A DNA stretch of 64,000 bases from Methanobacteriota archaeon. Lineage in GTDB: Archaea > Methanobacteriota > Methanobacteria > Methanobacteriales > Methanobacteriaceae. The first letter of the stretch is position 1. Each line of letters begins with the position of its first letter. The notes beneath the pieces are model-generated. The model was given only the letters and a program-made list of their open reading frames with translations. It did not search any database and was not told the DNA's origin. This document shows positions 10,553 to 33,940 of the stretch, piece after piece. The position numbers and the translations under genes are program-made. The stretch spans positions 32,001-96,000 of the forward strand of contig CAWBCJ010000018.1 of assembly GCA_963787255.1 (NCBI GenBank), given 5' to 3'.

Positions 10553-10555
10553 TGA

Positions 10556-12082: not shown

Positions 12083-12103
12083 TAATGAATTGAGGATTAT
12101 AAC

Positions 12104-12607
12104 ATGTGGGAAAAAATCAAACATAAATTTGAAAAATATCCTGCCCGAATGGATGTAGCACGTAAAATAATTGAATATGGACTTCGTGTAGGAGAAAAAG
12201 GAAAAATATACTGCGGAGACATCGAAATAAGTGACGTAGCCATTGCAAGAGCAACAAAAGTTGATAGAAGAAGCATTAAAGCTACTGTAAACATAATACT
12301 TGAAGATGAACAGCTGGCAAAAATATTCAAAAACATCACTCCTGCAGGACCCCTAGTTAAAAATGTAGCTAAGGATCTTGGCTTTGGAATTGTGGAAATA
12401 GAAGCAGAAGCAGGAAACCCTGGAATAATAGCTAGTGCTACAGATTTAATAGCCACTAACAGGATAAGCATAAGGCAGGTGCACGCAGGAGACCCAGAAT
12501 TTGAAGAAAATCCCCGCCTTACCATAATAACAGAAAAACCAATTGAAGGTAACCTCATAAATGAATTTTTAAAAATAGAAGGCGTAAAACGAGTGTCTAT
12601 TTACTAA
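12104..12607 (+). CDS. trpY: Tryptophan-sensing transcription regulator (HTH plus ACT domain)
   Basis: Divergent from trpE; MW N-terminus; IARATKVDRR HTH; ACT-like PGIIA...ISIRQ. Confidence 0.88.
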   Translation: MWEKIKHKFEKYPARMDVARKIIEYGLRVGEKGKIYCGDIEISDVAIARATKVDRRSIKATVNIILEDEQLAKIFKNITPAGPLVKNVAKDLGFGIVEIEAEAGNPGIIASATDLIATNRISIRQVHAGDPEFEENPRLTIITEKPIEGNLINEFLKIEGVKRVSIY

Positions 12608-17760: not shown

Positions 17761-17931
17761 TTTATCACCATTATTATCCTTTAAACAATTTTTTTGGGTT
17801 TTTCATATCCATTAAAGGGTTATCAAAGACGTAATTCTAATGATAGTAATCCATGCAACTTACTGTCCGTTTTTCACCCTTAAAAATTCTTTTATTCTTA
17901 ATTTATATTTAAATAACCTTTTATATATACT

Positions 17932-17965
17932 TTAATTGTACATTTAAATTAGATAATTATTTATA
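17932..17965 (+). promoter_or_regulatory. Palindrome-TATA element copy 1
   Basis: TTAATTGTACATTTAA-ATTAGATAATTA-TTTATA. Confidence 0.85.
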
Positions 17966-18008
17966 TTAGGAAATTCCTTATAATATTATAAAAAAGGAGG
18001 TGAAATAA

Positions 18009-18371
18009 ATGGAAGAAGTTAAAGAAGTGAAATCCATGACTAAAACTGTGAAATCTTTGCCTGTATTTGATATTTCTTTGATAGTGTCAGTGATTGCTTT
18101 GATTTTATCATTCATAGCCGGAATCCTATACTTCATTATCGGATATTCAACAATATACCAAATAAGCACATATATCATCAGTTTAAACCCTGAAACCGCT
18201 ACTGTCGTAAACTCAATTGCTGGTTCAATCACAGCTATGGGAGCATTATATCTAATCATAGTTTGGCCTATTATGGCATTCATAGGAACATTTATAGCAA
18301 CAGCCATAGCCGTATTACTATACAACTACTTAGCACCTAGAATTGGCGGCATTAAATTAGAACTCGAATAA
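18009..18371 (+). CDS. Membrane protein (DUF3566-like)
   Basis: GGAGGTG RBS; hydrophobic helices; LLYNYLAPRIGGIKLELE C-terminus. Confidence 0.75.
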   Translation: MEEVKEVKSMTKTVKSLPVFDISLIVSVIALILSFIAGILYFIIGYSTIYQISTYIISLNPETATVVNSIAGSITAMGALYLIIVWPIMAFIGTFIATAIAVLLYNYLAPRIGGIKLELE

Positions 18372-18447
18372 AAAAATTAAATTTTTTTTCTTTTTCAATT
18401 AAAAAATAATAATATTTAGTGGATTAAAACATAATGGAGGTGAAATA

Positions 18448-18606
18448 ATGGCAGAAACACAACAAATAAGCGGTGGAGCAATGATTGCATGGGCTATTAT
18501 ACTTGGAATCATTTTATTGCTCTTCCCAGGTTTAGTAATCTGGTTCGCTTGGTTTTCAGTATTCGTATTACTCTTTGGAGGTATTGCTGCCTTGTTATCA
18601 AAATAA
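18448..18606 (+). CDS. 52-aa two-helix membrane protein (single DUF308-like unit)
   Basis: GGAGGTG RBS; MAETQQISGGAMIAWAIILGIILLLFPGLVIWFAWFSVFVLLFGGIAALLSK; not in the ORF track. Confidence 0.75.
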   Translation: MAETQQISGGAMIAWAIILGIILLLFPGLVIWFAWFSVFVLLFGGIAALLSK

Positions 18607-19255
18607 TTCTAATTATAACCTTGAGTATAAAAATCTCATAAATTTTTCTTTTTTTTATCCTCTGCAAACTTTAAACGACATAATTTTGCGCTGATGGTCA
18701 ATATATCTTATTAAAACACTTCAATTCCAATTAACTCAGATAATCTTATTTTTAAACTATTAAAACTTCCAAATCCTATTATTAATTATTTTAGCTACAA
18801 TTCAGACATTATTAAGGTTTAATACCGAATATTATCTAAGATCAAATTGTTCCATAAACTGTTAAACACGTTTTATTGAAACATTTTAACAGCATAAAAA
18901 AAAATGCTAAAAGAAACAAAAAAAATACCATTTTTTTAACTCATGTAATCCTAATTAAAGAAGAATTCATAATTAAAAAAATGATTAAGAGATTTAAAAA
19001 GTGAAAAGATTGGTTAAGCTCTTAGATAAATGTATATCCTATATTATATCAAAATTATAGCAATCCTGTTAATCCGGAATACATCTGTGCTTATTATTAT
19101 GATTCTGTTCATTTTATTATTCAATATGACTCCAGAAACATTTATTTTTTCATCTATTCCTGAAATACGTTTATCATCGTCTGAAACCTTTTTAAATCTT
19201 CAGAAAAATTATTTTTTTCATCCATTTCAGACAAAGGGCATTTTCCATATCCATT

Positions 19256-20119
19256 TTACTCTAAATCACTGGTTCCATCTTCAACTATAACTCCTGTTCC
19301 AGTAGCAGTTACAATTAATGCTGTGCCCTGTAACCCGCCCATAGAGACATAGTCAATTATAACATCTATCACATTATTAGCTCCAATTGATTTAGCCTCC
19401 TCGAGCATTCGATATATGGCCAATTCCCTGGCTTCTCCTAAATAGAAGTCATCCAATAGAGTAGGTTCAATTATCTTTGTAAGCTTAGAGAGTTGCCCTT
19501 CAGACTTTTTTTCTTCTGCTACAGCTTCTCCACCAACTAAACCTACATATTTCTTTATTTTCCCCCCGTCTACAGGAGGAACAGATAATAGAGGTATAGC
19601 TAGTTCATCAAGGAAAATATCATCAGCAGATGGTCCAGCAATTATTTCCTCTTTTCCTTCGGCTTCAGGAGCTTTTCTCATAATTTTAGAAGGAATGAAA
19701 ATCAGGAATCCTATAAACTTTCTGACTATACCCACGCCAACCACAAAAAGAATATAATTTATCAATGTAGGGAATGCAGCTTGAAGAGTTAATATTATAG
19801 CAATTATAGTAATTAAACTGAGTTTGAAAGGCTCTTTGGGAAAAATATATCCCGGAGAGAACCAGCCATAACCATTGATTATCATGAATGTTAGAAGAGC
19901 GCTGATAGCGCCTGTGCTTTTACCATACTTCCTACGAGCTATGAAGGTTTCAACAAATCCTGCAAGTAGTGGGGAAACTATATACATGATATTGAATCCA
20001 AAAATAACTAAATTCCATGCTAAACATATAACAGCTGAACCAAATCCCACCAAAGTAGCAAAGATTATGGCAACAAGTGCCCAACGTTTTTCTTTAAGAA
20101 ATTTTACAAATGAAGCCAT
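19256..20119 (-). CDS. Membrane protein fused to a C-terminal YbjQ-like domain
   Basis: N-terminal TM helices; ARELAIYRMLEEAKSIGANNVIDV...VTATGTGV. Confidence 0.8.
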   Translation of the reverse strand: MASFVKFLKEKRWALVAIIFATLVGFGSAVICLAWNLVIFGFNIMYIVSPLLAGFVETFIARRKYGKSTGAISALLTFMIINGYGWFSPGYIFPKEPFKLSLITIIAIILTLQAAFPTLINYILFVVGVGIVRKFIGFLIFIPSKIMRKAPEAEGKEEIIAGPSADDIFLDELAIPLLSVPPVDGGKIKKYVGLVGGEAVAEEKKSEGQLSKLTKIIEPTLLDDFYLGEARELAIYRMLEEAKSIGANNVIDVIIDYVSMGGLQGTALIVTATGTGVIVEDGTSDLE

Positions 20120-20151
20120 AGTTTCATCTCTAAATTAAGATTAAAAATTAA

Positions 20152-20478
20152 TTATTCTTGATAAGTAACTGCAGTTCCAAAGACAGTGACCATTATAGTG
20201 TTTCCCATGGTGCCGCCCAGATTATGATAAGCCACACGAGTTCCTATAACAGCATTAGCACCTTTTTTCTCTGCTTTTTCTTGCATACTCTGCAGAGCTA
20301 ATTTCCTGGCACTTGTAATCTCTTCTTCATATTTAGAGGTTCTTCCCCCTACCACATCTCTCACTCCTGAGAACATATCCTTGTACATATTTGCTCCCAA
20401 GAGGGAATCTCCAGTTACTAAACCATGATATTCATTTATTTTTTTCCCTTCAATAGTTGGTGTAGTTAATATCAGCAT
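20152..20478 (-). CDS. YbjQ/UPF0145 family protein
   Basis: [10 protein letters not shown]...GLVTG...RDVVGGR...GANAVIG...GTAV. Confidence 0.9.
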
Positions 20479-20586
20479 TCAATCTCCCCTTAAACTTTAT
20501 AAAAATTTTTTAATATTAAGCTATAATACACTCGATGGTTTTGTATACTTTAAACCATTTTTGACATATATATTAAATATAATATT

Positions 20587-20840
20587 TTATTGAATATTTA
20601 AATCTATAAATATTTCTTTTTTTATACTTTCAAATTCCTCTTCAGTGATTGCTCCAGAATCTAATAATTCTTTGGCTTTTTTAATTTTATCCATAGGAAT
20701 AAACTTTTCTGATTTACCGAATTTCACTTTTCATGTCTCTTCTGATTAATCTTCCTGTCTTTTTGAGGCTTAGACCATCTTTTTCAAGTTTTAATTCTAT
20801 TTTGTTACCTTCATGATGCCCAACTACTATCTTGATTACC
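20587..20840 (-). pseudogene. Decayed SHOCT-domain gene
   Basis: MDKIKKAKELLDSGAITEEEFESIKKEI at 20694-20587; disrupted upstream reading (…GNKIELKLEKDGLSLKKTG…). Confidence 0.6.
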
Positions 20841-20889
20841 CTAATTTTTTATTGACAAAGTATATTTATGAATAATTTTATTTATGTTT

Positions 20890-20923
20890 TTAATTGTACA
20901 TTTAAAATAAATAATTATTTATA
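20890..20923 (+). promoter_or_regulatory. Palindrome-TATA element copy 2
   Basis: TTAATTGTACATTTAA-AATAAATAATTA-TTTATA upstream of the MFS gene. Confidence 0.85.
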
Positions 20924-20985
20924 TTTAAATTAAATAGTTATAATAGTTGATAATTTAAGGTATATAATCAGGAGTTAACTAATTA

Positions 20986-22530
20986 GTGATAAATATGGAA
21001 CACAAAAATCAGAATAAATGGGGCGTAGTAATAGTTGCCTGCATGGCGATTTTCATCATAGTTTTAGATTCATCTGCAATGAATGTAGCTATAAGTACAT
21101 TAGTTGTGGAATTAAATACAACTTTGTCGGTTATTCAAGCGATCATTGCTTTATATGCACTTATAATTGCTTCTTTCATGTTGTTGGGAAGTAAAATTCA
21201 GGATATCTTGGGTAGAAAGAAGACTTTTCTTTTAGGATTAGGTATCTATGCTTGTGGAACAACAATAGCCACTTTAAGTCTTAATGCGGGGATGCTGCTT
21301 ATTGGATGGGCTATTTTGGAAGGTATCGGTGCTGCGATGATGTTCCCTGCAACTACTACACTTGTAGGGAGTAGTTATGAAGGTAAAGATAGAGTCACTG
21401 CTTTTGGAATTTGGGGAGGAATAGCAGCAATGGGTGCTGCAATAGGTCCGATAATAGGTGGAATTTTTACAACTTACCTTACATGGAGACTGGTATTTGG
21501 TATGGAGCTGGTCTTTGTTTTCATTATATTAATATTCAGAAATTATTTAACTGAATCCATACCAACCTTGAAATGGAAAGATTTAGATATCGTTGGAGCA
21601 TTACTTTCAATAGTAGCACTGGTTTTAATAGTTTTAGGAATTTTATTACTATCAAAACCCGAATACTGGGAATACGTGGTAACATTATTGATTTCAGGTT
21701 CAATTCTGTTTATAGTCTTCTTATTATGGCAGAGGAGAAGAATTAATAAAGGTTTAGAGCCATTATCTGATATATCTCTTCTAAAAAATCGTTTATTTAG
21801 TTTAGGTAATTTTAACTCTATTTTACAGCAAATACCATTAGCAGGATTTCTCTTTATAATTCCGGTATTCCTGCAGCAGGTATCTAAAGCTGATGCATTC
21901 ACAACTGGATTAGCTCTTTTACCAGCATCTATTACTATTTTGATTTTCTCATTAGTTGGAGCCAGGCTATCATCAAAAGTAGGGCCTAAATACCTCTTAA
22001 TGATTGGATTTATCATTGCAGCAGCAGGAACATACATATTGGGCGGAGTATTCAACGTAAATACTCAAGTAGTAGATATTATACCTGGAACGGTTGTATT
22101 TGGAATTGGTGTAGGTCTCACACTTTCACAAATGACTAACCTTATTATATCCGCTGCAAGAGCTGATCAAGAAACTGATGCTTCTGGTTTATTTAATGCC
22201 TTTAAAAATTTAGGCTATTCCATAGGAACAGCTTTAATAGGTGTTTTACTTTTAATTGGAATATTCGGTGGCCTTACAACTGGAATCGAAACATCAGGTA
22301 TAGCTGGAAATATGACCACAGAACAAATACAAAGCAGCCTCTTTAACTATGTGGAAAAAATGCAGACAGTACCACCACAAATACCATCAGAATTAGTACC
22401 GCAAGCTACCCAAATTGTAGAATCAACCATTAGTTCTGCAATGAAACAGACATTTAATGCATTGACGTTAATTCTACTTTTAGGGTTTATTACAAGTTTC
22501 TTTATACCAAAAACAAAAAGAGAATCATAG
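20986..22530 (+). CDS. MFS transporter, DHA2/EmrB-type (about 14 TM)
   Basis: LDSSAMNVAI, GSKIQDILGRKK, GPIIGG, WR motifs. Confidence 0.9.
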   Translation: MINMEHKNQNKWGVVIVACMAIFIIVLDSSAMNVAISTLVVELNTTLSVIQAIIALYALIIASFMLLGSKIQDILGRKKTFLLGLGIYACGTTIATLSLNAGMLLIGWAILEGIGAAMMFPATTTLVGSSYEGKDRVTAFGIWGGIAAMGAAIGPIIGGIFTTYLTWRLVFGMELVFVFIILIFRNYLTESIPTLKWKDLDIVGALLSIVALVLIVLGILLLSKPEYWEYVVTLLISGSILFIVFLLWQRRRINKGLEPLSDISLLKNRLFSLGNFNSILQQIPLAGFLFIIPVFLQQVSKADAFTTGLALLPASITILIFSLVGARLSSKVGPKYLLMIGFIIAAAGTYILGGVFNVNTQVVDIIPGTVVFGIGVGLTLSQMTNLIISAARADQETDASGLFNAFKNLGYSIGTALIGVLLLIGIFGGLTTGIETSGIAGNMTTEQIQSSLFNYVEKMQTVPPQIPSELVPQATQIVESTISSAMKQTFNALTLILLLGFITSFFIPKTKRES

Positions 22531-22697
22531 TTTAGTAAAAAAAATGGATATTATGCCGAGATAATTTCAAATTAATTTCAATGCATTATCTATCTATTTT
22601 TATCTTTTTTTATAGGCGTCTTATTTTAATATAACACAATTCAGTTATATGCAATATATAAATTCTAACAATATTTTACTCCAATTCACGTTTCTCC

Positions 22698-22915
22698 TTA
22701 TTGATTACGCCTAATGTAAAATTTGGATAATGGCAAAGCGGTCACTCCATGGGCAACTACACTGAAAAGCACAGTGATGAAAACTGCCAAGATGAATAGT
22801 GTTCTGTCCCGGAAATGATCCTAACCCTTCTAAAGCTATTTCGTCAGCTATAATAAATGAAATTAGTGCAAGAACTAAAAAGGCTATTCTTTGATATTCT
22901 GGTATAATCCATCCT
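22698..22915 (-). pseudogene. Remnant of a cation:proton antiporter (NhaP-like) gene
   Basis: Fragments WIIPEYQRIAFLVLALISFIIADEI and FILAVFITVLFSVVAHGVTALPLSKFY-stop, disrupted. Confidence 0.5.
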
Positions 22916-23051
22916 TTATCTCTCCAATCTAACTTTAATTATTAACAGTAAAAAATATCTTTTCATCATTATCATTAATATTGAAAATAGATTTATTGCA
23001 GAAATTAGACTAATTTACTTATTTTCTTTGTTCAATGATATAATTCAGTAA

Positions 23052-23190
23052 TCAATCAATTTCTAAATTTTTCAATGATTTCAAAATTTTATCTATGTGG
23101 CATTTAGTACCAAGCACCTTTCCTAACATTGCACCTGCCGTAATACCAAGAATAATAGAAAATAAAGAAGTTCTTTGCACCCAAGATTCA
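23052..23190 (-). pseudogene. 3' remnant paralogous to the membrane protein gene at 54057..54485
   Basis: WVQRTSLFSIILGITAGAMLGKVLGTKCHIDKILKSL versus WMQGAPLLAIIFSITAGTMLGRVLSTRHGIDKILKAL. Confidence 0.7.
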
Positions 23191-23276
23191 TTTCCTCTTT
23201 CCATTTTCCTTCATTGATGGAATCTTAAGTGTATATGTATAGAAATAGATCAATAAAAAAAATAAAAAAAAGGAAA

Positions 23277-23978
23277 TTAGCTTGTCATTTTCCCGACTTC
23301 GTCAGCTACTTTCCAGTGCTCACCTTTCTTTTCATTCCTACGAATTAGCCACACTCCAATACCTGCTCCTACTATAGCTCCTGCAGTATCAGTGAATAAG
23401 TCGTTCATAGTATCTTCATGAGGGCTTTGGGTTGGTGAACCCTGCATTTGGGTGTTACCTGTAATTTATCCTATAGGACCCTGGGATAAGTACTGGTCAT
23501 AGGTATATTCTACCATTTCTAGTGCTCCTCCAAAACCTAAGGTTACCATTATAATGATAAATGCCATAGCACCATATGATGCTTTTAGTTTACCATAGAA
23601 GTACATGGTGTAAACAACCATCATTCCAATTAATGCAAGGTATAATGGCAGCATGAAGTGCATGAAATTGTCATAGTGTGGAAGTTTCACATATAATCCA
23701 AGTGCATCTCCACCAACAAGCTCGAATAGTACCATAGACAATAATATAAGCTCAATTTCAACTGGTAATGCACGTATTTTGCCTTTTGTAAAAAATGCTG
23801 GAGCATTAACTATTGCTAAAGCTATTAAGATTAATATTCCAAAAATTCTTTCAGTACCATTGGCGCCACCGAAAATAGTAAAATAAATACCGCAAATCAA
23901 AAGGAATATACGCATTATCCTTAGCAAATTCCTCTGTAAAGGACTCATAGTATCCTTATCAGGGTTTAAATAACTCAT
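23277..23978 (-). pseudogene. DUF2238-like membrane protein interrupted by an in-frame TAA at 23466-23468
   Basis: YDNFMH...LEMVEY, then the frame continues past the stop into QMQGSPTQSPHEDTMNDLFTDTAGAIVG. Confidence 0.7.
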
Positions 23979-24047
23979 TTTTCTACCTCCTTTAAAATCT
24001 TTAATTCTATTTCAATTGATATTGCATCATTTTATTATATAAACTTT

Positions 24048-24081
24048 TTAATTGTACATTTAAAATAGATAATTATTTATG
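24048..24081 (+). promoter_or_regulatory. Palindrome-TATA element copy 3
   Basis: TTAATTGTACATTTAA-AATAGATAATTA-TTTATG. Confidence 0.85.
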
Positions 24082-24102
24082 TTGAGTAACATAGCATATA
24101 AT

Positions 24103-24220
24103 TTGCATTGGAGAAATTAGAACAGCCTCCATTTCAGGGATTATAGTTGTTACTAAATACCATGCATATTATATTAGTCTATCTAAAAACTTTCCGGCGT
24201 TTCTATTTCTCCCTTGCAAT
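24103..24220 (+). ncRNA. Candidate structured small RNA
   Basis: Begins about 22 nt after the TATA of copy 3; 5' TTGCATTGGAGAAATTAGAACAGCC pairs with 3' GGCGTTTCTATTTCTCCCTTGCAA; internal hairpins; followed by TTTT. Confidence 0.5.
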
Positions 24221-24284
24221 TTTGGAAAAAGTTATTAATTCGATAACTAAATTTAAGTTCAATTAATTAAAAGGAGGTGAAAAA

Positions 24285-24680
24285 GTGAAACTAAACTGGA
24301 TGGCAATAGCAATTGGAATAGTCCTTACAGCAGTTTTAGCAATATTCGGATTTTATGTAGGATTAATAGCAATTATAGCCCCTATAATAGCAGGTATAAT
24401 TGTTGGTTATGTATATGCTGATAATACTGGTGACGGGGCTCTTAATGCGGGAATTGGAGCAGGTATAGGTGGACTTATTTATACAATACTTGCATTTTAC
24501 GCAGCTCTCAGCGTTATAACTGCAATAACTTATTTCACTGCATCAACTTATGTACCAACCGGAGCAAATTTAGCCGTAACTGCAATAGGAGCTTTAGTCA
24601 TAGATTTCATACTTGGTGCAATTGGTGGAGTTATAGGAGTCTTAATTAAAGGAGAACCAGCTGTAAAAACAACAGAATAA
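24285..24680 (+). CDS. Small glycine-rich membrane protein (DUF5518-like)
   Basis: GGAGGTG RBS; IAPIIAGIIVGY...GALNAGIGAGIGG. Confidence 0.75.
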   Translation: MKLNWMAIAIGIVLTAVLAIFGFYVGLIAIIAPIIAGIIVGYVYADNTGDGALNAGIGAGIGGLIYTILAFYAALSVITAITYFTASTYVPTGANLAVTAIGALVIDFILGAIGGVIGVLIKGEPAVKTTE

Positions 24681-25036
24681 CAACAACTACAATTATAAAC
24701 AACTATTACATCGATAAACAAAAAAAATCTCATTTTTACTTTTTTTAGACTAATATTTTTTTTACACAAAATAAGTGTTAATGTTTATAGTAATTATCTT
24801 AATTATATGGATAAATAACAAACTCAGGTCTTAAATAATGAATTCAATGCAAAGATATAATTAGGGTGAAAATATGTCTATAAAGAAAGAAAATATGCCG
24901 GAAAAAGGGGCTGCAACACATAAATTAGTTATTCTTCTTATATTTTAATATTGTTCTTTTTAAGGCTTAGAAAATCTTTTTACAGTTTAAATCAATTCTA
25001 TTTTATTCATAATATCCAAATATTAATATTTCATGT

Positions 25037-25052
25037 TTAATTGCACATTTAA
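25037..25052 (+). promoter_or_regulatory. Palindrome element copy 4 (orphan, no downstream TATA)
   Basis: TTAATTGCACATTTAA. Confidence 0.6.
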
Positions 25053-25080
25053 ACCAAAAAAAATAAAAACTATTTGTTAA

Positions 25081-25593
25081 TTATTGTATACTTAATGTCT
25101 TTAAAATGGAGTTATAGTCTGTTTCGGTTTGATTTAGTGCATTTGGTGGGCATATATATTCCAGTATATAGTAATAATTGCCTGTATCTATGATTGTTAC
25201 TTTTTGAGCTAAACTTGGGCCATAAGTTCCAAATTGAGTTGCTTTGAAATTTCCGATGTTAGTTGTTCCAACAGTTGAATTAGTTGTATTCATAGCAATT
25301 GTATTTGTCCCTGGAAGCTGCAATGTCCCCTGAGATTTTTTTTGCATTTGAATGATTATATAAGATGTTGGGCTTCCTCCATCTGGAATATTTGCAGTTA
25401 AAATAACTTCAGAAAACAGTGAATTATCCTCAAAAGTCCCTATTACCTGATCCTGGCTCCAGGAGTTCGGGTATTCAAAATATAATTTTCCAGTATCGAA
25501 TGTATTATTTCCAAAAGTGGCAGCCAATATAATAGCAATAACTACAACTATTACAATAATTATTCCTGGTAGAATTAATCGGTCGTTATCCAT
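25081..25593 (-). CDS. Membrane-anchored extracellular protein (PsbP-like fold suspected)
   Basis: N-terminal TM/signal; FEYPNSW motif; YNSILKTLSIQ C-terminus. Confidence 0.65.
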   Translation of the reverse strand: MDNDRLILPGIIIVIVVVIAIILAATFGNNTFDTGKLYFEYPNSWSQDQVIGTFEDNSLFSEVILTANIPDGGSPTSYIIIQMQKKSQGTLQLPGTNTIAMNTTNSTVGTTNIGNFKATQFGTYGPSLAQKVTIIDTGNYYYILEYICPPNALNQTETDYNSILKTLSIQ

Positions 25594-25656
25594 ATTTTTT
25601 CACCTAATTTTTATAAAATACATTAATTATTATATCTAAACAATCTTATTTAAGTT

Positions 25657-25690
25657 TTAATTGTACATTTAAAATAAATAATTATTTATA
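25657..25690 (+). promoter_or_regulatory. Palindrome-TATA element copy 5
   Basis: TTAATTGTACATTTAA-AATAAATAATTA-TTTATA. Confidence 0.85.
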
Positions 25691-25712
25691 TTAAATTTAA
25701 ACAGTATTATAC

Positions 25713-26303
25713 GGGGCTTGTTTGAAAAAAATTAAGGAGACATTAAACATGGCAGAAGGAAATAATGTATTATTAGGTATTTTAGCGATAATTTTAGGTA
25801 TTTTAGTGATTGCTTTCCCATTATTCAGCGTATTCACTGCAAGCGTATTAGCAGGTTTTGCTGTAATCTTTTTAGGAATCTGGTTACTTGTACAAAGTTT
25901 CGGAATGTGGAGTGCAAGTAAAGGAGCAAGTATAGCCTATTTAATACTCGGACTTATAGCAATAGTTGGAGGAATAGGCCTATTTGGAAGCATACTTGCA
26001 TTCAGTGCATTAGCTAGCTTCTGGCTCTACTTTGTAGGTTTCTTCCTGATAATTTCAGGTATAATGTCATTCTTCACCAAAGAAGGAACAACAGGTAAAG
26101 GAGTCGGAGGTGCAGGTGTTATCTTAGGTATATTATACATAATATTAGCATCATATGCATGGAATCCATACTATTTAGCTTTATTAATTGGAATCTGGTT
26201 AATAATCGATGGAATAGCTTTATTCTTTGTTAGCCCATCAGAATTAATGAAACCTGGAAAATAAACATTCAAAAATAAAAATATTATAAATCAAACAAGC
26301 CCC
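25713..26303. repeat. Perfect 13-bp inverted repeat bracketing one gene
   Basis: GGGGCTTGTTTGA at 25713-25725 and TCAAACAAGCCCC at 26291-26303. Confidence 0.85.
25749..26264 (+). CDS. HdeD/DUF308-family membrane protein
   Basis: AAGGAG RBS before ATG 25749; repeated LGILAIILGILVIAFP / LIGIWLIIDGI units. Confidence 0.8.
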   Translation: MAEGNNVLLGILAIILGILVIAFPLFSVFTASVLAGFAVIFLGIWLLVQSFGMWSASKGASIAYLILGLIAIVGGIGLFGSILAFSALASFWLYFVGFFLIISGIMSFFTKEGTTGKGVGGAGVILGILYIILASYAWNPYYLALLIGIWLIIDGIALFFVSPSELMKPGK

Positions 26304-26374
26304 ATTTTCTTAAGATTAAAAAAAAGATATTCAAGATAGATTTAAATAATAAATTAATTAAAAGGAGTGGTATT

Positions 26375-26590
26375 ATGCCAGATTTAGGACCATTAGGAAG
26401 AGGCGGAGCTAGAAGAAGAACAAGAAGAAGGGTGATGGCAATGAATGAAATGACCAAGCCACAAGAACCATCCAGAGAAACTGAAACTCCTATTAAATCA
26501 GATAACTCAGATAAATTAAAGCAATTAGCAAAACTATTAAGGAATAAAGGAGTAATAACCGAAGAAGAGTATGACTTGCTATTCGACTAA
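26375..26590 (+). CDS. Small protein with Arg-rich N-terminus and SHOCT domain
   Basis: GGARRRTRRRV; KLKQLAKLLRNKGVITEEEY. Confidence 0.8.
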   Translation: MPDLGPLGRGGARRRTRRRVMAMNEMTKPQEPSRETETPIKSDNSDKLKQLAKLLRNKGVITEEEYDLLFD

Positions 26591-26640
26591 ACATTTTTTA
26601 AAGTAATGAATTTATTCTTTTTTACAAGATGTGATATACT

Positions 26641-27120
26641 ATGCAGAAAAAAGAAAGCGCATTGATCATTATAGTTCTCGGTTTAATTGTTTTGGCTTTT
26701 CCTGTTTTAGGAGTAATCCCATTTAGCTTGATTACTGGATTTATAGTATCATTTTTGGGTATAGGACTACTATTTACAGGTTTGGCATTAAGAAGAGAAG
26801 ATGCAACTAGGGGAATTTTGGGAATAATTTTAGGAATTATAGTCCTAATTCTAGGTATAGGCTTTATTGTTAATCCGGCCCTATTCAGCTTTGTAGCTGC
26901 ATTATTCGTATTTATTGCAGGTTTATTCCTGGTAGGGATAGGAATTGCAACCATTATTGGTAATTTTGGTGGAGATATTAGATCCGGTGCAGTTGCTTTG
27001 GTTTTAGGTATAATTTACTTGATTATAGCTACATTGGTATCTGATCCAGCAGTTTTAGGTACTTTAATAGGTTTATGGCTTTTAATTACTGGATTTTTAA
27101 TGCTGTTCCAGAAAGACTAA
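26641..27120 (+). CDS. HdeD/DUF308-family membrane protein
   Basis: Close paralog of 29609..30088 (LGLIVLAFPVLGVIP; LIGLWLLITG). Confidence 0.8.
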   Translation: MQKKESALIIIVLGLIVLAFPVLGVIPFSLITGFIVSFLGIGLLFTGLALRREDATRGILGIILGIIVLILGIGFIVNPALFSFVAALFVFIAGLFLVGIGIATIIGNFGGDIRSGAVALVLGIIYLIIATLVSDPAVLGTLIGLWLLITGFLMLFQKD

Positions 27121-27290
27121 AAATTCAACAACTCTTTTTTAAAACTTTTTGGAATATGTGAAAGATGAGGGGATAACTTAATTTTTTTTAAGAATGTATT
27201 TAATATACTTGCTATATTAAGCGATAGATAGTGATGATAAATACTATGAAACCATATTTTTTAAAGATTAAGCTTACGGAGTGAAATCTA

Positions 27291-27986
27291 ATGTCTGAAT
27301 TATTTAATTTATTATCAGTAGTAGTGCCTACAGCATTAGTCGCTGCTTTAAGCCCTACCAGTTTTGCTGTGATGATAATGTTAATGTCTTTGTCTAAAAA
27401 ACCAAAAACTAGTGGTCTCGGGTTTTTAGCAGGATCTTCAATAATTATATTATTGGCAGCTTTATTAGGACTTGTTGCTGCAGAAGGAGCATCTTTTGTA
27501 GCTAGTACTGAAATTAACTTCCTTCCAGCATGGATAGATGTAATTTTAGGAGTTATAATACTTTATTTTGGCATTAAAACCACTTTTAAGAAAGATAATG
27601 AAGCTGATGAAAAAAAATTAGAAAATCGTCTGAAAGATAAATATACTACTTTAGGATTTTTTGGCAGTGCCTTATTAGCAATGGGTCTTTTTGCTTTAAA
27701 TTTAATCACCACAATTTTGGTGTTTTTTGCTAGCAACCAAATAGCAGCTTCTAGTGTAAATTGGATGGGTAAAACGATTACGTTAATTTTACTAGTGACC
27801 ATAACCCTCTTATTAGTGGAAATACCATTAATGATATACTTTTTAGTTCCTCAAAAGGCGGATAATATTCTTTCAAATTTAAATACATGGATTCAAAAAA
27901 GAGGGCATTACTTAACTGCAGGTTTAGTCATTATAATAGGGATATATATACTTTTTGAAGGGTTAAATGAGTTAAATTTGATTTAA
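27291..27986 (+). CDS. GAP/Sap-family (LysE-like) membrane protein
   Basis: ALVAALSP, GFLAG, LNTWIQKRG pattern; about 6 TM. Confidence 0.75.
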   Translation: MSELFNLLSVVVPTALVAALSPTSFAVMIMLMSLSKKPKTSGLGFLAGSSIIILLAALLGLVAAEGASFVASTEINFLPAWIDVILGVIILYFGIKTTFKKDNEADEKKLENRLKDKYTTLGFFGSALLAMGLFALNLITTILVFFASNQIAASSVNWMGKTITLILLVTITLLLVEIPLMIYFLVPQKADNILSNLNTWIQKRGHYLTAGLVIIIGIYILFEGLNELNLI

Positions 27987-28165
27987 ATAATAAATGTATG
28001 TGGAATTTAACTATAATGAATGATTGATAGAGAAAGGTAAATGTTTTCATTATTTTAACCCTAAAAAAATTTATTTTAAAGGATAACTATTATTCCCCTT
28101 AACTTTATTTTTATAATTTAATTGTTCTAAATAAGATTTCAATCTTAATTTTAGAAAGATATATT

Positions 28166-28199
28166 ATAATTGCACATTTAAAATAAATAATTATATTAA
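28166..28199 (+). promoter_or_regulatory. Palindrome-TATA element copy 6
   Basis: ATAATTGCACATTTAA-AATAAATAATTA-TATTAA upstream of the AI-2E gene. Confidence 0.75.
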
Positions 28200-28242
28200 A
28201 TTTGAACATTTATTATTAAATATTAAAAAAAGGAGGAAAAAA

Positions 28243-29241
28243 ATGATTAATGATTTTAAAATACCGCCCTTTCTTCGGCAAATTATTGTAATAGCCGTTA
28301 TTTTCGTTGCAGTAGTAGGATTAAAAATTACTGCCCCCATTATGAGCCTTATAATACTTTCAATTTTTCTTAGTCTGCTTTTCTACCCATTTTTGAAATG
28401 GCTAGAAAAAAAAGGTATATCTTATAATAAAGGCATGCTGATAACTCTTGTAGGAATCGCCGCTCTAGGTTTTGGGGTATTAGCTTTTATGGCACTTTCA
28501 TTATCCCAATTAATACAAGCAATCCCTAGTTTATCTATAAACTCTTCTGATTTTCTTGCACAATATGGAAATCAAATAATTGAATTTATTGTCACCAATA
28601 TACCTATAGAAAATGTAAAAGGACTCATTGCCGATGGGACTTTCATCATATTTGCGGTCATATTCCTGGTTTTTGAACTTCCCCAAATAAAAAACAGACT
28701 CGTAAAAGGATTAGGTGCAGATAACCCTACCTTGAATAAAGCTTTTGCTCTTGTTAGCACCTTCATCAAATACTTTATAATTAGAGTTAAAGTAAACTTA
28801 ATTTATGGTATAGGTGTTGCAGGTGTTCTCTTTATATTTGACATTAACTTTGCAATACTATGGGGTTTATTAACATTTATACTTGGATTTATTCCATATT
28901 TGGGTATTATGATAGCAGCAATACCCCCTATACTAGTAGCATGGGGTAAGTATGGGATACAAGGAGCCATAATAATGGGAATTTTCTTTGTAATAATCAA
29001 TACCATTGTAGAAAGCTATATATTCCCTAGATTAACTGGAAAAGGCCTTCAAATGTCAATTTATGTAGTATTTGCTGCACTATTTGTATGGGGTTGGATT
29101 TTAGGGCCTGTTGGATTTTTCATTGGTATTCCTTTAACCCTGATTATAATAAGATATCTTGAAAACTTTGATGAAACTCGATGGTTGGCCTTAATCATGA
29201 CCAGTGGCGAGGAAGAGGATATTAAGAAAAAGAAATCATGA
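28243..29241 (+). CDS. AI-2E family transporter
   Basis: FILGFIPYLG, ESYIFPRLTGKGL, WGWILGPVGFFIGIPLT. Confidence 0.92.
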   Translation: MINDFKIPPFLRQIIVIAVIFVAVVGLKITAPIMSLIILSIFLSLLFYPFLKWLEKKGISYNKGMLITLVGIAALGFGVLAFMALSLSQLIQAIPSLSINSSDFLAQYGNQIIEFIVTNIPIENVKGLIADGTFIIFAVIFLVFELPQIKNRLVKGLGADNPTLNKAFALVSTFIKYFIIRVKVNLIYGIGVAGVLFIFDINFAILWGLLTFILGFIPYLGIMIAAIPPILVAWGKYGIQGAIIMGIFFVIINTIVESYIFPRLTGKGLQMSIYVVFAALFVWGWILGPVGFFIGIPLTLIIIRYLENFDETRWLALIMTSGEEEDIKKKKS

Positions 29242-29608
29242 AATAGATAAGGAAAACATGAGAAGCGAAATAGTTCGGGTTTAGGTCTTATAATTGGTTA
29301 GGGTTTTTTTACAACGAATAACCAAGATCAAGATCCCAGGCATAATTCTACTTTTACCAGAGGTTACGATAGTAGATCTTTGCTTGGGCTCATAAATTCC
29401 AATTAACTGTTTTCAATTCTCTATTTCCTATGATAATGGTCGACCTCATGAATTAATATTTTTTTTATGGCTATAAACTCGATTTTATAAATAAAAATAG
29501 CAAATTAGCATAATGTAAGTTGTAATTTTTTAATAAATTCAAGCACATTAAAATAGACCCAAAGAAAAATAAAAAAATAAAAAGGGAAGTTTATTGAATA
29601 TTAATTTT

Positions 29609-30088
29609 CTATTCTTTCATGAAAAGCATTAATATTCCAGTTATTAAAAGCCATAGGCCAATTAGTACACCTAGAACCACAGGATTTGCGATGAAAGTTC
29701 CTACGATTACGTATAATATACCTATTATTAGTGCTACGACTCCATTCCATCTGCTACCGCCAGTTTTTGTGAATACTCCCATAATACCAGCAATAATTAG
29801 GAATAATCCAACGATCCAAACTATAAAACCAACTAACCAGCTGAATAGTCCAGGGTTGAAGATGAATCCAATACCAAGAACAAGGGCTATTATTCCCAAT
29901 ATAAGTTCCAGTATTCCCATAGCGAAACTTTCACCCATTTCAGCTATTCCGGCTAATAGAAGACCGATACCCAAAAATAGAACTATAAATCCAGTAAGTA
30001 AAGCTAATGGGATTACTCCTAAAACGGGGAAAGCCAAAACAATCAGCCCTAACACTATCAATATCAATGCACTGCCATTTTTTTCCAT
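29609..30088 (-). CDS. HdeD/DUF308-family membrane protein
   Basis: AGGAGG RBS; paralog of 26641..27120. Confidence 0.8.
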   Translation of the reverse strand: MEKNGSALILIVLGLIVLAFPVLGVIPLALLTGFIVLFLGIGLLLAGIAEMGESFAMGILELILGIIALVLGIGFIFNPGLFSWLVGFIVWIVGLFLIIAGIMGVFTKTGGSRWNGVVALIIGILYVIVGTFIANPVVLGVLIGLWLLITGILMLFMKE

Positions 30089-30255
30089 ATCTTTCTACCT
30101 CCTGATTTTTCTATATATATAGGTTAGATTTTGTTTATTATTAACTTTTTGTAGTTATCACTTCTTTATGCTTCATTTGAAATTGATCCGCCATTATTTT
30201 GCATGGTCTTAATTAAAAGTTAAATGAAAAAAAATAAATTAATTTTATATGTAAT

Positions 30256-30762
30256 TTAATCACTTATTTTTTGCTCTAAATCTTTTTTATCAAGTTTTAG
30301 CACAACATAGTCTCCAATTTGTTTTATATCAACATCAGAGATTATTAGATGCTTTTTATTAAATGCTCCACCAGTCGAGATAAGAACATTATGGATAAGA
30401 CATTTTTTAGGGTCAATAACCATATTTTCTATTTTACCCACAGTCATTGCATCTCCGGATACTACAGTTTTTCCTATTAAGTCTTTATAATGAAATTCAT
30501 TTTTCATTAAATCTTCAATTTTATCCACTTTTGATATTTTATCCATGTCATCTTTGCCTAATTTTAGCTGCACATAGTCGCCTATTTCTGCTAAATCATT
30601 TTCAGTTACTGCAAAATACTTCTTTTTTAAAGCACCTCCTTCAACTATTATTATTTTATCAACAAGGCACTCCTTTAAGTTCATTGCAAGATCAGCTATT
30701 TTACCTACTTCTACCGCTTCTTGGTTTAGTACTTTCATTCCAATAAAATCACTAGCATTCAT
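30256..30762 (-). CDS. Tandem (double) PRC-barrel protein
   Basis: Two repeats: FIGMKVL...VGKI...IGDYVQLK and LIGKTVV...VGKI...IGDYVVLK. Confidence 0.85.
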   Translation of the reverse strand: MNASDFIGMKVLNQEAVEVGKIADLAMNLKECLVDKIIIVEGGALKKKYFAVTENDLAEIGDYVQLKLGKDDMDKISKVDKIEDLMKNEFHYKDLIGKTVVSGDAMTVGKIENMVIDPKKCLIHNVLISTGGAFNKKHLIISDVDIKQIGDYVVLKLDKKDLEQKISD

Positions 30763-30799
30763 TATTTTACCTCCTAATTTAAAATCATATTTAATTACA

Positions 30800-31189
30800 T
30801 TATTTTTGTTTTTGAACTAAATTATTTATGGTTTCTTCTAATTCTATCATAATTTCTTCTAATTCATGTTTTTGATCCTGTACGACACACAGAGTATCTA
30901 AAAGCACATCCCTAAGCTCATTAGTGACGACAACACTCCACATCTCATCAAGATAGTTATATAGGGTAATTAAATCATCTGGGGACTCTTTATTAGATTC
31001 TATATCGTTTTTAACAAGCTTTACAAATGTAATAAGTTCAGCATCTAAATGAAACAGGTTTTCTACTAAAAAAGCTATTCGAGCTACAATTTCCTCCTGC
31101 AATTCCTTTTTCAATAACCCTTCAATAGGTATTTCCAATTTACCTAATGGTGATTCAATTTTTTTGCTATTTTCTTCCATCATATTCAT
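30800..31189 (-). CDS. Hypothetical acidic helical protein
   Basis: 129-aa ORF directly downstream of element copy 7; co-oriented with the PRC gene. Confidence 0.65.
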   Translation of the reverse strand: MNMMEENSKKIESPLGKLEIPIEGLLKKELQEEIVARIAFLVENLFHLDAELITFVKLVKNDIESNKESPDDLITLYNYLDEMWSVVVTNELRDVLLDTLCVVQDQKHELEEIMIELEETINNLVQKQK

Positions 31190-31235
31190 TTCCTAATTTT
31201 AATTAAACTATGATGAATTGTATATACTCTTAATT

Positions 31236-31269
31236 AATAAATAATTATCTATTTTAAATGTACGATTAA
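31236..31269 (-). promoter_or_regulatory. Palindrome-TATA element copy 7 (reverse orientation)
   Basis: Reverse complement reads TTAATCGTACATTTAA-AATAGATAATTA-TTTATT. Confidence 0.8.
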
Positions 31270-31361
31270 ATAAGAGGTTAATACAAGTTAAAATCTTCCT
31301 GTAATGATGGAAAGTGTTATAAACCTATGGTAGCAAATAATGACTAACAATTTGGAATTAA

Positions 31362-32740
31362 TTGGAAGAACTCCTAAAATTTGATGATATGACAAATAAA
31401 ACAAAAAATAAAGTTTCTAATCTTGAATTAGGTTTAAATAAAGATGCTGAAAAAATAAAAAGGTTAGAAACTACCCTAAAAGAGATTAAAAATAAATTTG
31501 ATGAAGCACAGTCAATTGCACAGTTTGGTTTTTGGGAAATAGATCCAGTAACTTTAAAATCCAACTTGGACTGAAGGAATTTATAAAATTGCTGGTTTAG
31601 AACCTAAAAATGGACAGCTCAAATATTATGATCTAAAAGAAATTATACACCCTGAAGATTGGGATCTTTTTTATAATGCCAAACAAACTGTAATTACAAC
31701 AGGAAAAGATGTTGAAATTGATATAAGAATGATAAGACCAGATAGTTCTATACGTTATGTTCATGTTATTGCAAAACCAAAAAATGATGAAAATGGAAAA
31801 GTTGTAGGTGTAAGGGGTACAGCTCAAGATATCACTGATTTAAAAAGAATTGAAAATCGTTTAAAAGAGTCAGAGACATTTTACAAGACTCTTTTTGAAA
31901 ATACAGGGACTGCAAGCATTATCGTTGATGAAGATACAACCATATTAATGGCTAATACACAGTTTGAAAACTTTTCAGGTTATTCTAAAGAAGAAGTAGA
32001 AGGTAAAATGAGCTGGAAAGAGATGGTCTTAAAAGAAGATCTGGAAATGATGGAAAAGTATCATTATATGCGTAGAAATGATATGGAAACTCCACCTGAA
32101 AATTATGAAGCTCAATTAATAGATAAAGAAGGCAATATCAGGATTGTTTTAATTAATGTGGCTATGATTCCTGGAACAAAAAGGAGCATAGCTTCTCTTC
32201 TTGATTTAACAGAACGTAAAGAGATTGAAAAAGAATTGGCAGACAGTGAAAGAAGATATAGGTATATAGTTGAAAAAGCTACTGCAGGAATGTTTATTTT
32301 AGATAAAAATGGTATAATCAAATATTTAAATGAGCATATGGCTCAAATGCTGGATTATACAAAAAATGAAATGTTAGAAAGACATATAAAAAGTTTTGTC
32401 GATGAAGAAGAAGACTTTTTGTAGGTCTAGAAAACCATTTGAAATCCAAACAGAACGATATAATTGGTTTAAATTTTTAGATAAGGAAGGAAATGTATTT
32501 TGGTCAAATTTAACAGTTTCACCAATTTTCAATTCTAAAAAGGAATATACTGGATTGCTTGGAATTGTATCTGATGTTAATATGCAGAAAGGATTAGAAG
32601 AAGCATTTTTAGAAAGAGAAGAAATATTCACAGATATTATTTATGATATGATGGAAATGCTCAATAATATTGCAAATGACAAAAATAAATCTGAATTCAA
32701 TGAAAAAGTATCTACTCATAAAAATTTGGATAATAATTAA
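31362..32740 (+). CDS. Multi-PAS sensor protein with no kinase or output domain (frameshifts near 31565 and 32420; start uncertain)
   Basis: AQSIAQFGFWE / WTEGIYKI...IHPED...RMIRPDSSIRYV...GTAQDIT; second PAS ending LLDLTERK; third ending GIVSDVN; no H-box or HATPase before the stop. Confidence 0.8.
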
Positions 32741-32803
32741 TTTTATATACCTTTTAAATATATTTATAGTACATAAATGTTAGATTATTAAAAGGTTATT
32801 ATT

Positions 32804-33940
32804 ATGGAAGAAGCAAATTTAGAAATTATGAATGATCCTTATTTTAAAAATTTTATAAAAAGTAGAAGGCTCTCTGAATCAACTGAAAGAGTATATACTG
32901 GAAGGTTAAGATCTTTTTTTGATTTTGTAGGTAAAAATCCGTCTGAATTAATTAAAGAAGCTCAAAAAGAAAGCAGACGAAAAATAGATGAATATTTCCA
33001 TGATTACATAGAAAATCTGAAAAAAAGTGGAAAATCATCGAATACCATCATTAATCGAGTAGATACTGTTAAAGCATTTTATAATGAGTATGATATTGAT
33101 ACAGAAAGTATAAATCGTATAATATCTCCTGAAACGGATAATTTAACTCCTAACAAGATTATATCTCAAGATCAGATTAAGGAAGCTCTTGAATTAAGTA
33201 GCTTAAGGGATAAAGCTATTATTTTGCTTCACATGTCTTCAGGTATGGAAGCCACCGAATTAAGATATCTAACTTATGGGGATTTTATTAATTCTATTGA
33301 AGAATACATAGATTTAAAGCCTGAAGAAAGATTTAATGTGAATAAAATAGCAGATAAGCTTTTTAAAATGGATGAAGTTGTTGGAACCTGGAAAATAGAA
33401 AAAAATAGGACTGGAAAACCTTATGTCACTTTTAACAGTCCGGAATCAACTAAGGCTATCTTAAGCTATTTAATAGATAGAGAAAGGAAAAATAAACCTA
33501 TTAAATCACTAAAAGATCCACTTTTTGTTAATTCCCAAAATCAAGCCTTAAATGTTTCTGCTCATGGTTCTATTTTTAAACGTGTGAATAATAGGGCTAA
33601 TTTTGGTTATTTAACTAAAAAAAGAAGATTTTTTTCTTCAACAATGCTTCGAAAGTATTTTAAAACTAAATTATATGAATCTGGAGTAGATGAAAAGATA
33701 GTAAACGCTATTTTAGGTCAAAAATTGGATATGAATATAGATTATCATTCAGATGCTGAAATAGCTGTTCTTAAAGATAAATATCTTGACGCATTAGGAA
33801 ATTTATCCTTAGAAAAAGCTAATAAAGAAACAGTGTCCAGTGAAGAGTATAAAAAGCTTATTAAAAAGCTTAATGAGAAAGATAAAGAATTAGAAGAAAT
33901 TAAAAAACATTTAAACCATATAAAACAAATCATTGAGTAA
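32804..33940 (+). CDS. Tyrosine recombinase/integrase-fold protein with degenerate active site
   Basis: SAM-like N-terminus (LSESTERVY; KSSNTIINR); LRDKAIILLHMSSGMEATELRYL box I; STMLRKYF; ILGQKLDMNIDY box II; C-terminal coiled coil. Confidence 0.85.
   Translation: MEEANLEIMNDPYFKNFIKSRRLSESTERVYTGRLRSFFDFVGKNPSELIKEAQKESRRKIDEYFHDYIENLKKSGKSSNTIINRVDTVKAFYNEYDIDTESINRIISPETDNLTPNKIISQDQIKEALELSSLRDKAIILLHMSSGMEATELRYLTYGDFINSIEEYIDLKPEERFNVNKIADKLFKMDEVVGTWKIEKNRTGKPYVTFNSPESTKAILSYLIDRERKNKPIKSLKDPLFVNSQNQALNVSAHGSIFKRVNNRANFGYLTKKRRFFSSTMLRKYFKTKLYESGVDEKIVNAILGQKLDMNIDYHSDAEIAVLKDKYLDALGNLSLEKANKETVSSEEYKKLIKKLNEKDKELEEIKKHLNHIKQIIE

Follow-up and report, generated by a model that had tools for sequence, protein, structure and literature searches.

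Which protein reads the palindrome that recurs ahead of genes in a block of small membrane-protein and transporter genes of a Methanobacteriota archaeon? The block lies in a stretch of 64,000 nucleotides (nt) of the family Methanobacteriaceae (assembly GCA_963787255.1, contig CAWBCJ010000018.1, positions 32,001 to 96,000), which we call the window and whose coordinates we use throughout. At the edge of the block, a gene for a degenerate tyrosine recombinase, named REC here, follows a gene for a sensor made of PAS domains. An earlier note, made from the sequence of the window alone, proposed that this recombinase has been domesticated as a transcription factor under the control of the PAS protein. 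Following up this proposal, we arrive at even chances that REC is a domesticated DNA-binding regulator that reads the palindrome of this regulon.

The repeated element is 34 nt long. It consists of an 18-nt near-palindrome, TTTAATTGTACATTTAAA, a 4-nt gap and a 12-nt part, ATAATTATTTAT, that resembles the archaeal transcription factor B recognition element and TATA box (BRE/TATA); the 12-nt part begins exactly 22 nt after the start of the palindrome. A repeat search and a genome-wide mismatch scan placed seven copies between positions 17931 and 31270 of the window (Table 1), which is AT-rich (27-39 % G+C in 2-kb windows). Five copies have 0-2 mismatches in 34 to the reference copy at 20889. The copy at 28165 has five, two of them in the palindrome, and the one at 25036, lying between two gene 3' ends, is a palindrome alone (one mismatch) without the TATA part. 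From each of the six full copies, a membrane-protein or transporter gene starts 66-238 nt downstream. The loose pattern TTTAA-N8-TTAAA occurs 8 times in the window against 1.94 expected, a count reached in none of 100 shuffles. In the rest of the 2.47-Mb genome (G000), the mismatch scan found one further good copy (C25:187602, minus strand, 5/34 mismatches), which heads a lipoprotein-like gene; in relatives, the orthologues of this gene are part of the block. The seven clustered copies first reported are thus present, with the amendments that one of them is half an element and that one more lies elsewhere in the genome.

A profile of 35 distinct instances (stored loci) is strongly conserved at positions 1-8, 10-18 and 22-34. 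In the palindrome, A10, C11 and A12 are kept in 34-35 of the 35 instances and most copies have TGTACA at the centre, in which the G and T of TGT are kept in 25 and 26 instances, respectively; the outer arms, TTTAAT and TTTAAA, are better kept than this triplet. The orientation of the palindrome and its 22-nt register to the TATA part are constant. Against the initial reading of the element as recombinase-type arms around a spacer (TTTAA-8 bp-TTAAA), the central 6 bp are constrained and not a free spacer, with A10, C11 and A12 nearly invariant. The activator-like placement of the palindrome, just upstream of the predicted BRE/TATA part, agrees with what we see. We consider the element very probably to be a promoter with a regulatory palindrome.

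REC matches two Pfam families, PF00589 (40.1 bits, cut-off 27.1) and the N-terminal SAM-like domain PF02899 (23.3 bits, cut-off 22.3), and its sole sequence match in the Protein Data Bank (PDB) is the archaeal XerA (E 1.1e-4). The AlphaFold 2 (AF2) model, built with 35 family members in the alignment, has a mean predicted local distance difference test score (pLDDT) of 86 and displays the full core-binding (CB) and catalytic (CAT) fold, to which REC adds an extra long C-terminal helix (residues 346-377). Structure searches with this model again place XerA first (Foldseek, E 1.9e-8; VIA, 4a8e, Z 18.9 over 254 aligned residues). In VIA, IntI (2a3v, Z 15.8), Cre, Tn1549 Int, XerH and lambda Int score Z 13-16, the DNA-bound phage repressor SroF (9rd5) scores Z 13.6 and MrpR/YopR (8a0a) Z 12.1. 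The leading matches of both programs are all tyrosine recombinases and cover REC residues 7-337.

We located the catalytic positions by alignment to XerA and across the family. E149 of REC aligns with the first catalytic arginine of XerA (Arg-I), and this column holds glutamate or glycine in 12 of 12 sequences of our alignment A1 and arginine in 1 of 31 family members. The HxxR box reads T280-M-L-R283, in which His-II is lost and Arg-II is kept and invariant. His/Trp-III is Q306 in the REC orthologues, tyrosine in a paralogue clade at 47-50 % identity and histidine in distant members. All three of these positions (Arg-I, His-II and His/Trp-III) are replaced in each of the 7 orthologues in A1. 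A tyrosine lies about 8-9 residues past Q306 in most orthologues; G017 has it at a shifted position and the 47-50 % clade lacks it. The column thus varies, and the assignment of the Lys and Tyr positions in REC is uncertain in our alignments. The description of REC as an intact, degenerate reading frame of 378 amino acids (aa) with a recombinase fold is borne out by these replacements, by the modelled fold and by the PF00589 match.

The recombinase fold raises a different possibility for the palindromes, namely that a system of cassette shuffling or island integration, driven by this recombinase family, uses or once used them as recombination sites, their promoter context being secondary. The palindrome can be read as two arms and a 6-bp core, and REC marks one edge of a block that genomes have in full or not at all, with a gene order that varies between them. 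In one relative (G020, L022:2955-5026), three tandem DUF308 cassettes, about 750 nt apart and each with an element of its own, adjoin the PAS-REC pair, and in another (G017) the gene belonging to one element is missing from the junction at which that element lies. Yet an identity of 64-74 % to the window's copy marks the tandem cassettes as old paralogues rather than recent products. Arms of only 6-7 nt fit poorly with this picture as well, and the Tyr is not conserved among orthologues that have all lost Arg-I, His-II and His/Trp-III. Because catalytic residues are lost, orientation and TATA register are fixed and the centre is conserved, we favor an operator over a recombination site, a role that we judge improbable for the palindromes. 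Cassette shuffling, the alternative named in the earlier note, is on the strength of the lost residues unlikely as a present activity.

Why, then, has REC been kept? Its orthologues (71-87 % identity) are found at 15 loci, in 7 of 23 genomes of the genus and in 8 further genomes of the species collection, with duplicate loci counted once. The open reading frame (ORF) is intact in 14 of 14 full-length orthologues, and their ratio of nonsynonymous to synonymous substitution rates (dN/dS) has a median of 0.186 (range 0.13-0.39, 91 pairs), from which we judge REC to be under purifying selection. Such low ratios despite the lost catalytic residues argue that REC is kept for a function other than catalysis. 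They also bear on the view that REC is the decaying integrase of an old island, without present function, and the element a duplicated promoter. The loss of catalytic residues, the island-like behavior of the block and several broken-looking genes in the window would suit decay of this kind. It is hard to reconcile with the intact frames and low dN/dS, with a pairing with PAS or PAS/GAF genes that is conserved in two paralogue clades, and with the loss of the palindrome in REC-less genomes that keep the TATA part (both described below), and we give it very little credence.

The PAS gene of the window encodes three PAS domains and, in this assembly, is spread over three reading frames (31389-31574, ~31558-32424 and 32396-32740). 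By tblastn, residues 1-56 of an intact 582-aa orthologue fall into the first frame, residues 57-~270 and 395-474 into the next and residues 469-568 into the third; one PAS domain of the orthologue is missing in-frame from the window's gene. Another genome encodes an intact 459-aa protein with three PAS domains. Public metagenomes from soil and sediment contain contigs of related strains (88-99 % alike) in which the T5 run at 32416-32420 is one T shorter and the segment at 31558-31640 measures 83 nt instead of 81; each of these differences restores a single frame. Because these contigs carry neither break, the breaks are either strain-specific or assembly errors. Pfam detects no HisKA/HATPase or other output domain in the window's PAS fragments or in intact relatives of 579-1069 aa. 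The gene is thus an output-less multi-PAS sensor gene, as had been described, though in three frames rather than in one.

A PAS gene lies upstream of REC at 11 of the 15 orthologous loci, so that the neighborhood seen in the window is the usual one. Counted among the 11 are the window's broken gene, a 316-aa short form, one gene split over two contig ends and one 1.7 kb away; at two loci (G003 and L071) the PAS gene is absent, and at two (L068 and L072) a contig end hides its status. The pairing recurs in the 47-50 % paralogue clade, whose members at three loci lie directly downstream of output-less PAS/GAF genes (two intact, 1042-1069 aa; the third in three pieces) and are also devoid of His-II, His-III and Tyr. 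By contrast, HxxR, His and Tyr are retained in a pair of family members at 40-41 % identity and in 18 members at 27-39 %, none of which adjoins a PAS gene. In this comparison, the members that have lost more catalytic residues are the ones linked to a sensor gene. For REC (alignment A4) paired with the naturally short PAS protein (alignment A3), complex prediction returned no answer either way (score 0.00, controls absent). That the PAS protein controls REC is possible, and we propose it tentatively. At least one cultured strain has an intact PAS-REC pair and several elements.

Two side observations concern the same relatives. Nearly all members of the wider integrase-like family of the genus and its sister family (27-39 %, 353-455 aa) have glycine at Arg-I, and some have an arginine one position past it; HxxR, His and Tyr are present in all of them. 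Ahead of the PAS/GAF genes of the 47-50 % clade, two species share a conserved stretch of ~40 nt (L030:~5200-5260 and L031:~6100-6160), followed by short G+C-rich boxes, which may be a promoter or an RNA element.

If REC reads the palindrome, the two should occur together. We counted matches to the 34-mer with at most 3 mismatches and used the reversed pattern, which gave 0 matches in all genomes, as a control. All 7 REC-bearing genomes of the genus contain 3-7 copies, whereas 14 of the 16 REC-less ones contain none and two (G008 and G015) contain one each. In a tree of the prephenate-dehydrogenase gene, REC-bearing genomes are scattered among REC-less ones, and at least six changes are needed to account for REC. 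Of the four independent pairs that well-supported branches allow, the motif follows REC in 3.7-3.8 and never does the opposite. The co-occurrence that the earlier note suggested checking is therefore found, with G008 and G015 as departures from it; the operator and recombination-site readings predict it equally.

A sharper view comes from a single promoter. Copy 5 heads a DUF308 gene whose orthologues, 30 copies in all, occur in 22 of the 23 genomes of the genus, with the TATA part ~40 nt ahead of the start codon. We scored the TATA part with at most 1 mismatch and the palindrome with at most 4 mismatches exactly 22 nt upstream of it. The TATA part is found at similar rates with and without REC (7/9 and 15/21 copies). 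The palindrome is present at 6 of the 9 copies in REC-bearing genomes and at 0 of the 21 in REC-less genomes, those of G008 and G015 included, and is thus far from equally common where the recombinase gene is missing. This comparison identifies the 12-nt part as a core promoter and the palindrome as an addition seen only where REC is present.

Several observations weigh against REC as the reader of the palindrome. G008 (92 % complete, 160 contigs) and G015 (91 %, 290 contigs) each carry one element with 0 mismatches and have no REC orthologue (best identity 28-36 %) and no PAS partner. Their elements, both close to contig ends, head an intact operon of DUF3566-like, lipoprotein-like, DUF308 and AI-2E genes. 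The DNA of this operon is 92 % identical between the two (L037 and L058, respectively), compared to 79 % for the dehydrogenase region, so that the element probably stems from one recent shared event; the likeness of the operons is a sign of recent transfer. Even as a single event, it is a counter-example. Among the 8 further REC-bearing genomes, 4 match the strict pattern and 4 do not, which leaves 4 of 15 REC-bearing genomes without a match; by eye, two of these four have variant copies, with a linker 1 nt shorter or a diverged TATA part. The 18-mer alone (at most 1 mismatch) does not exceed its reversed control (0-3 versus 0-3 per genome) and is unusable for counting elements. The sign test on the four pairs gives p = 0.125, the lowest value that four pairs permit, on a single-gene tree. 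Arms of 6-7 nt are short for a recombinase, whose spacer would be free and not conserved as the centre is here. Near the 47-50 % clade, a search for 12-mers occurring at least 3 times (L029-L031) revealed no convincing multi-copy motif. As to the PAS protein, G003 keeps three elements and has REC directly divergent from one of them, with no PAS gene, so the protein is not essential; it is dispensable for keeping the elements, since G003 and L071 lack its gene, G010 has a shortened one and that of the window is frame-broken. Motif and PAS gene thus do not always occur together, as G003 shows.

Linkage adds to these points, since REC, the PAS gene and the element-bearing genes are physically joined. 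At the syntenic site of the REC-less G019 and G009, the whole block is missing and just a YbjQ gene pair stands between the flanking genes. The synonymous divergence (dS) of REC to G000 is 0.40-0.69, as opposed to 0.94-1.74 for the dehydrogenase gene, and ranks the genomes in a different order, which suggests that the block has been exchanged between species. The co-occurrence of REC and element may reflect this linkage and not a function.

It is here that a further reading gains ground, in which the palindrome is the operator of another factor encoded elsewhere, TrpY or an unrecognised one, and REC and the PAS protein are merely linked neighbors. The TGTACA at the centre of most copies is the same as the TRP box, which we take to be TGTACA. 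A trp operon lies to the left of the block, and the gene divergent from its trpE is probably trpY; the intergenic region between them holds a 14-nt palindrome around TGTACA (Table 1). TrpY binds TRP boxes, as stated in PMC6737238. The perfect elements of G008 and G015, which have neither a REC nor a PAS partner, and the confounding of REC co-occurrence by linkage suit an outside factor. Such a factor is less easily squared with the trpY-like gene (81-88 % identity) that the REC-less and element-less G009 and G019 retain, with arms that are better kept than the central TGT, and with the DUF308 promoter, which has lost the palindrome in REC-less genomes though its core is kept; we identified no candidate for it. 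We hold an outside factor to be unlikely, albeit one to be reckoned with.

How might REC act on these promoters? The 12-nt part would be the core BRE/TATA of the membrane-protein genes and the palindrome an added regulatory site. REC, its catalysis lost, would have been retained as a sequence-specific DNA binder, probably as a dimer on the two half-sites of the palindrome, from where it would modulate recruitment of transcription factor B (TFB) and the TATA-binding protein (TBP). The output-less PAS protein would be an optional accessory sensor partner. Archaeal activators usually bind just upstream of the BRE, and archaeal transcription starts ~25 nt past the TATA box. With TTTATAT (element positions 30-36) as the TATA box, the palindrome would lie at about -59 to -42, and the 5' untranslated region would span ~20 nt and carry the GGAGG seen ahead of start codons. 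Because the palindrome sits upstream of the BRE, activation is slightly favored over repression.

We arrive at the proposal of an undescribed split module of Methanobacterium that combines an output-less PAS or PAS/GAF sensor with a dead recombinase-fold protein as its DNA-binding output. The module would exist in at least two paralogous clades, one of which would bind the palindrome upstream of the BRE/TATA of a transferable envelope, ion or pH-stress regulon and activate it. In this full form, the proposal is a speculative one. The domestication inferred at the outset draws support from the degenerate fold, the purifying selection, the PAS pairing and a palindrome that tracks REC at the DUF308 promoter, and it is weakened by elements kept without a PAS gene and by the REC-less G008 and G015.

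Table 1. Positions of the element copies, the regulator candidates and the surrounding genes (window coordinates unless a contig is given).
Feature	Position	Strand	Remarks
trp operon	5485-12607 (region)		5-12 kb left of the block
trpE	10556-11935	-	in the trp operon
Perfect 14-nt palindrome centred on TGTACA	near 12073-12086		trpY-trpE intergenic region
167-aa gene divergent from trpE	12104-12607	+	No Pfam match; ~5 kb left of the block
Element copy 1 (palindrome and TATA part)	17931-17964	+	Starts at 17931; 2/34 mismatches; 78 nt upstream of DUF3566-like gene
120-aa membrane protein, DUF3566-like	18009-18371	+	PF12089, 25.1 bits, cut-off 22.2
Element copy 2 (reference copy)	20889-20922	+	Starts at 20889; upstream of MFS transporter
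514-aa MFS transporter	20986-22530	+	PF07690, E 7.9e-43
Element copy 3	24047-24080	+	Starts at 24047; 238 nt upstream of DUF5518 gene
131-aa membrane protein, DUF5518	24285-24680	+	Pfam assignment
Orphan palindrome	25036-25053	+	Starts at 25036; 1 mismatch; no TATA part
Element copy 5	25656-25689	+	Starts at 25656; heads DUF308, SHOCT-like, DUF308, SfLAP/Cad-like run
DUF308	25722-26264	+	First gene of same-strand run 25722-27986
SHOCT-like, 71 aa	26375-26590	+	Second gene of the run
DUF308	26641-27120	+	Third gene of the run
SfLAP/Cad-like membrane protein	27291-27986	+	Last gene of the run
Element copy 6	28165-28198	+	Starts at 28165; 5/34 mismatches; 78 nt upstream of AI-2E family transporter
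332-aa AI-2E family transporter	28243-29241	+	
DUF308	29609-30088	-	In run 29609-31189 under copy 7
PRC-barrel protein	30256-30762	-	In run under copy 7
129-aa unknown protein	30800-31189	-	First gene of run under copy 7
Element copy 7	31237-31270	-	Starts at 31270; palindrome 31253-31270; divergent, 119 nt upstream of PAS ATG (31389)
Multi-PAS gene, three PAS domains, no output domain	31389-32740	+	Three frames; breaks near 31560 and 32416-32420
REC, 378 aa, tyrosine-recombinase fold, degenerate catalytic residues, long C-terminal helix	32804-33940	+	ORF intact
DUF3566-like gene, extra copies	C29:3363-3713, C26:34447-34797, C1:119384-119743, C21:4865-5215		G000 contigs

The genes under the element bear on what such a regulon would do. 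Their content, with DUF308/HdeD-like, AI-2E, MFS and SfLAP/Cad-like proteins, points to cell envelope, ion or pH stress, and the block of relatives also contains proteins that by eye resemble a Na+/H+ antiporter and a K+ channel. A Pfam scan of the block's ORFs, including seven of 50-86 aa, gave no match to a DNA-binding transcription-factor family, in keeping with the initial remark that the block holds no conventional factor. Candidate regulators from relatives were set aside: a TrmB-family gene adjoins REC in one relative only; a 135-aa protein of SHOCT/PH type (by eye) stands next to the MFS gene in four; and a 140-aa protein of unknown kind that lies near the G008/G015 operon is not linked to the block, its homologues elsewhere being no more than 33-50 % identical.

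Further features of the block deserve mention. The 71-aa ORF at 26375-26590 is Arg-rich at the N-terminus and SHOCT-like at the C-terminus (under the Pfam threshold), with 65 % identity in one relative; SHOCT-like proteins of 132-135 aa (by eye) adjoin the MFS gene in four relatives. The between-species dS of the MFS gene is, like that of REC, below that of the dehydrogenase gene. Two DUF308 paralogues (26640-27128 and 29601-30089) form an inverted pair, with arms of 291 and 124 nt that are 70-71 % complementary, around the SfLAP-like and AI-2E genes. The DUF3566-like gene at 18009-18371 has four further copies in G000 (86-98 % identity), three of which share a different conserved promoter with just one palindrome half; two of the copies lie within the first few kb of their contigs. 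These extra copies may be a repeated element.

Some genes look broken. A membrane protein of 232-236 aa in relatives is split here (23466-23978 and 23277-23447), and ORFs of 30 and 50 aa at 22698-23204 are possible gene remnants, the former resembling by eye the C-terminal end of a relative's antiporter-like protein. To the left of the block, an oxidoreductase (13726-14697) lacks ~100 aa compared with its orthologues. Together with the breaks in the PAS gene, the broken-looking genes at 22531-23978 and 13726-14697 suggest assembly indels or real decay.

Archaea, and Methanobacteriales especially, have many PAS/GAF sensors without a recognisable output domain and few DNA-binding response regulators. 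How output-less sensors reach the transcription machinery is an open question, to which a recombinase-fold partner, if our proposal is true, would be a concrete answer for one family. The proposal would also supply a defined operator-promoter pair with natural operator-less variants that can be tested by archaeal in vitro transcription, and the cultured strain makes such experiments feasible.

Compared with known systems, REC shares the PF00589 domain and the SAM-like N-terminal domain with XerA, its best fold match. Unlike XerA, three of its catalytic residues are replaced, it has an added C-terminal helix, and its candidate target is a multi-copy promoter element rather than a single dif-like site. 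An integron likewise places a recombinase-family gene beside small cassettes that each carry an imperfect palindrome, and IntI is among the fold matches of REC. In integrons, IntI is an active enzyme, and the cassettes, mostly promoterless, carry attC at their 3' ends. In the block, the palindrome precedes the genes, a fixed 22 nt ahead of the TATA part, and REC has lost catalytic residues; both points set the block apart from an integron. TrpY and its TRP box, a regulation described in Methanothermobacter, are close in that TrpY is a repressor of Methanobacteriales with a box that is presumably TGTACA and a trpY-like gene lies near the block; they differ in that the gene also occurs in element-less genomes and that the targets of the element are unrelated to tryptophan.

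Inactivated relatives of tyrosine recombinases have been put to use as DNA-binding proteins elsewhere. TnsF of Tn6022-like transposons is described, in PMC10293859, as an inactivated tyrosine-recombinase derivative that serves purely as a sequence-specific DNA selector. TnsF differs from REC in that it is bacterial, is equipped with zinc fingers and tandem CB domains, and serves transposon targeting rather than transcription. Our literature search returned no report of an archaeal or PAS-linked catalytically dead tyrosine recombinase as a regulator, and a review of archaeal tyrosine recombinases (PMC8371274) contains no word beginning with 'domesticat'.

The master repressors MrpR/YopR (of SPbeta) and SroF (of phi3T), from Bacillus phages, come nearest in kind. 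According to PMC10516654, MrpR combines a tyrosine-recombinase fold with the loss of recombinase function, and the repeated element that it binds belongs to its own prophage, SPbeta. The resemblance to REC lies in the CB and CAT fold, in the replacement of several catalytic residues without retained recombinase function and in the regulation that MrpR/YopR and SroF exert by binding DNA at a repeated element of their own locus (same source), a role that for REC is our proposal. SroF, known to us from PDB entry titles, also has a protein antirepressor (9rgl), a parallel to the possible PAS partner. MrpR and SroF are bacterial phage proteins, whereas REC is chromosomal and archaeal, with cellular membrane-protein promoters containing an archaeal BRE/TATA as its proposed targets and a PAS sensor as its proposed partner. 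Structural alignments give 8-16 % identity between REC and the two repressors, and the PDB sequence search with REC matched neither of them. Since REC is closer to XerA, Cre and IntI than to MrpR or SroF, catalysis appears to have been lost independently; we take REC not to be related to MrpR by descent, the resemblance being one of analogy only. If our proposal is true, the phage repressors MrpR and SroF would find in REC their first cellular counterpart from an archaeon.

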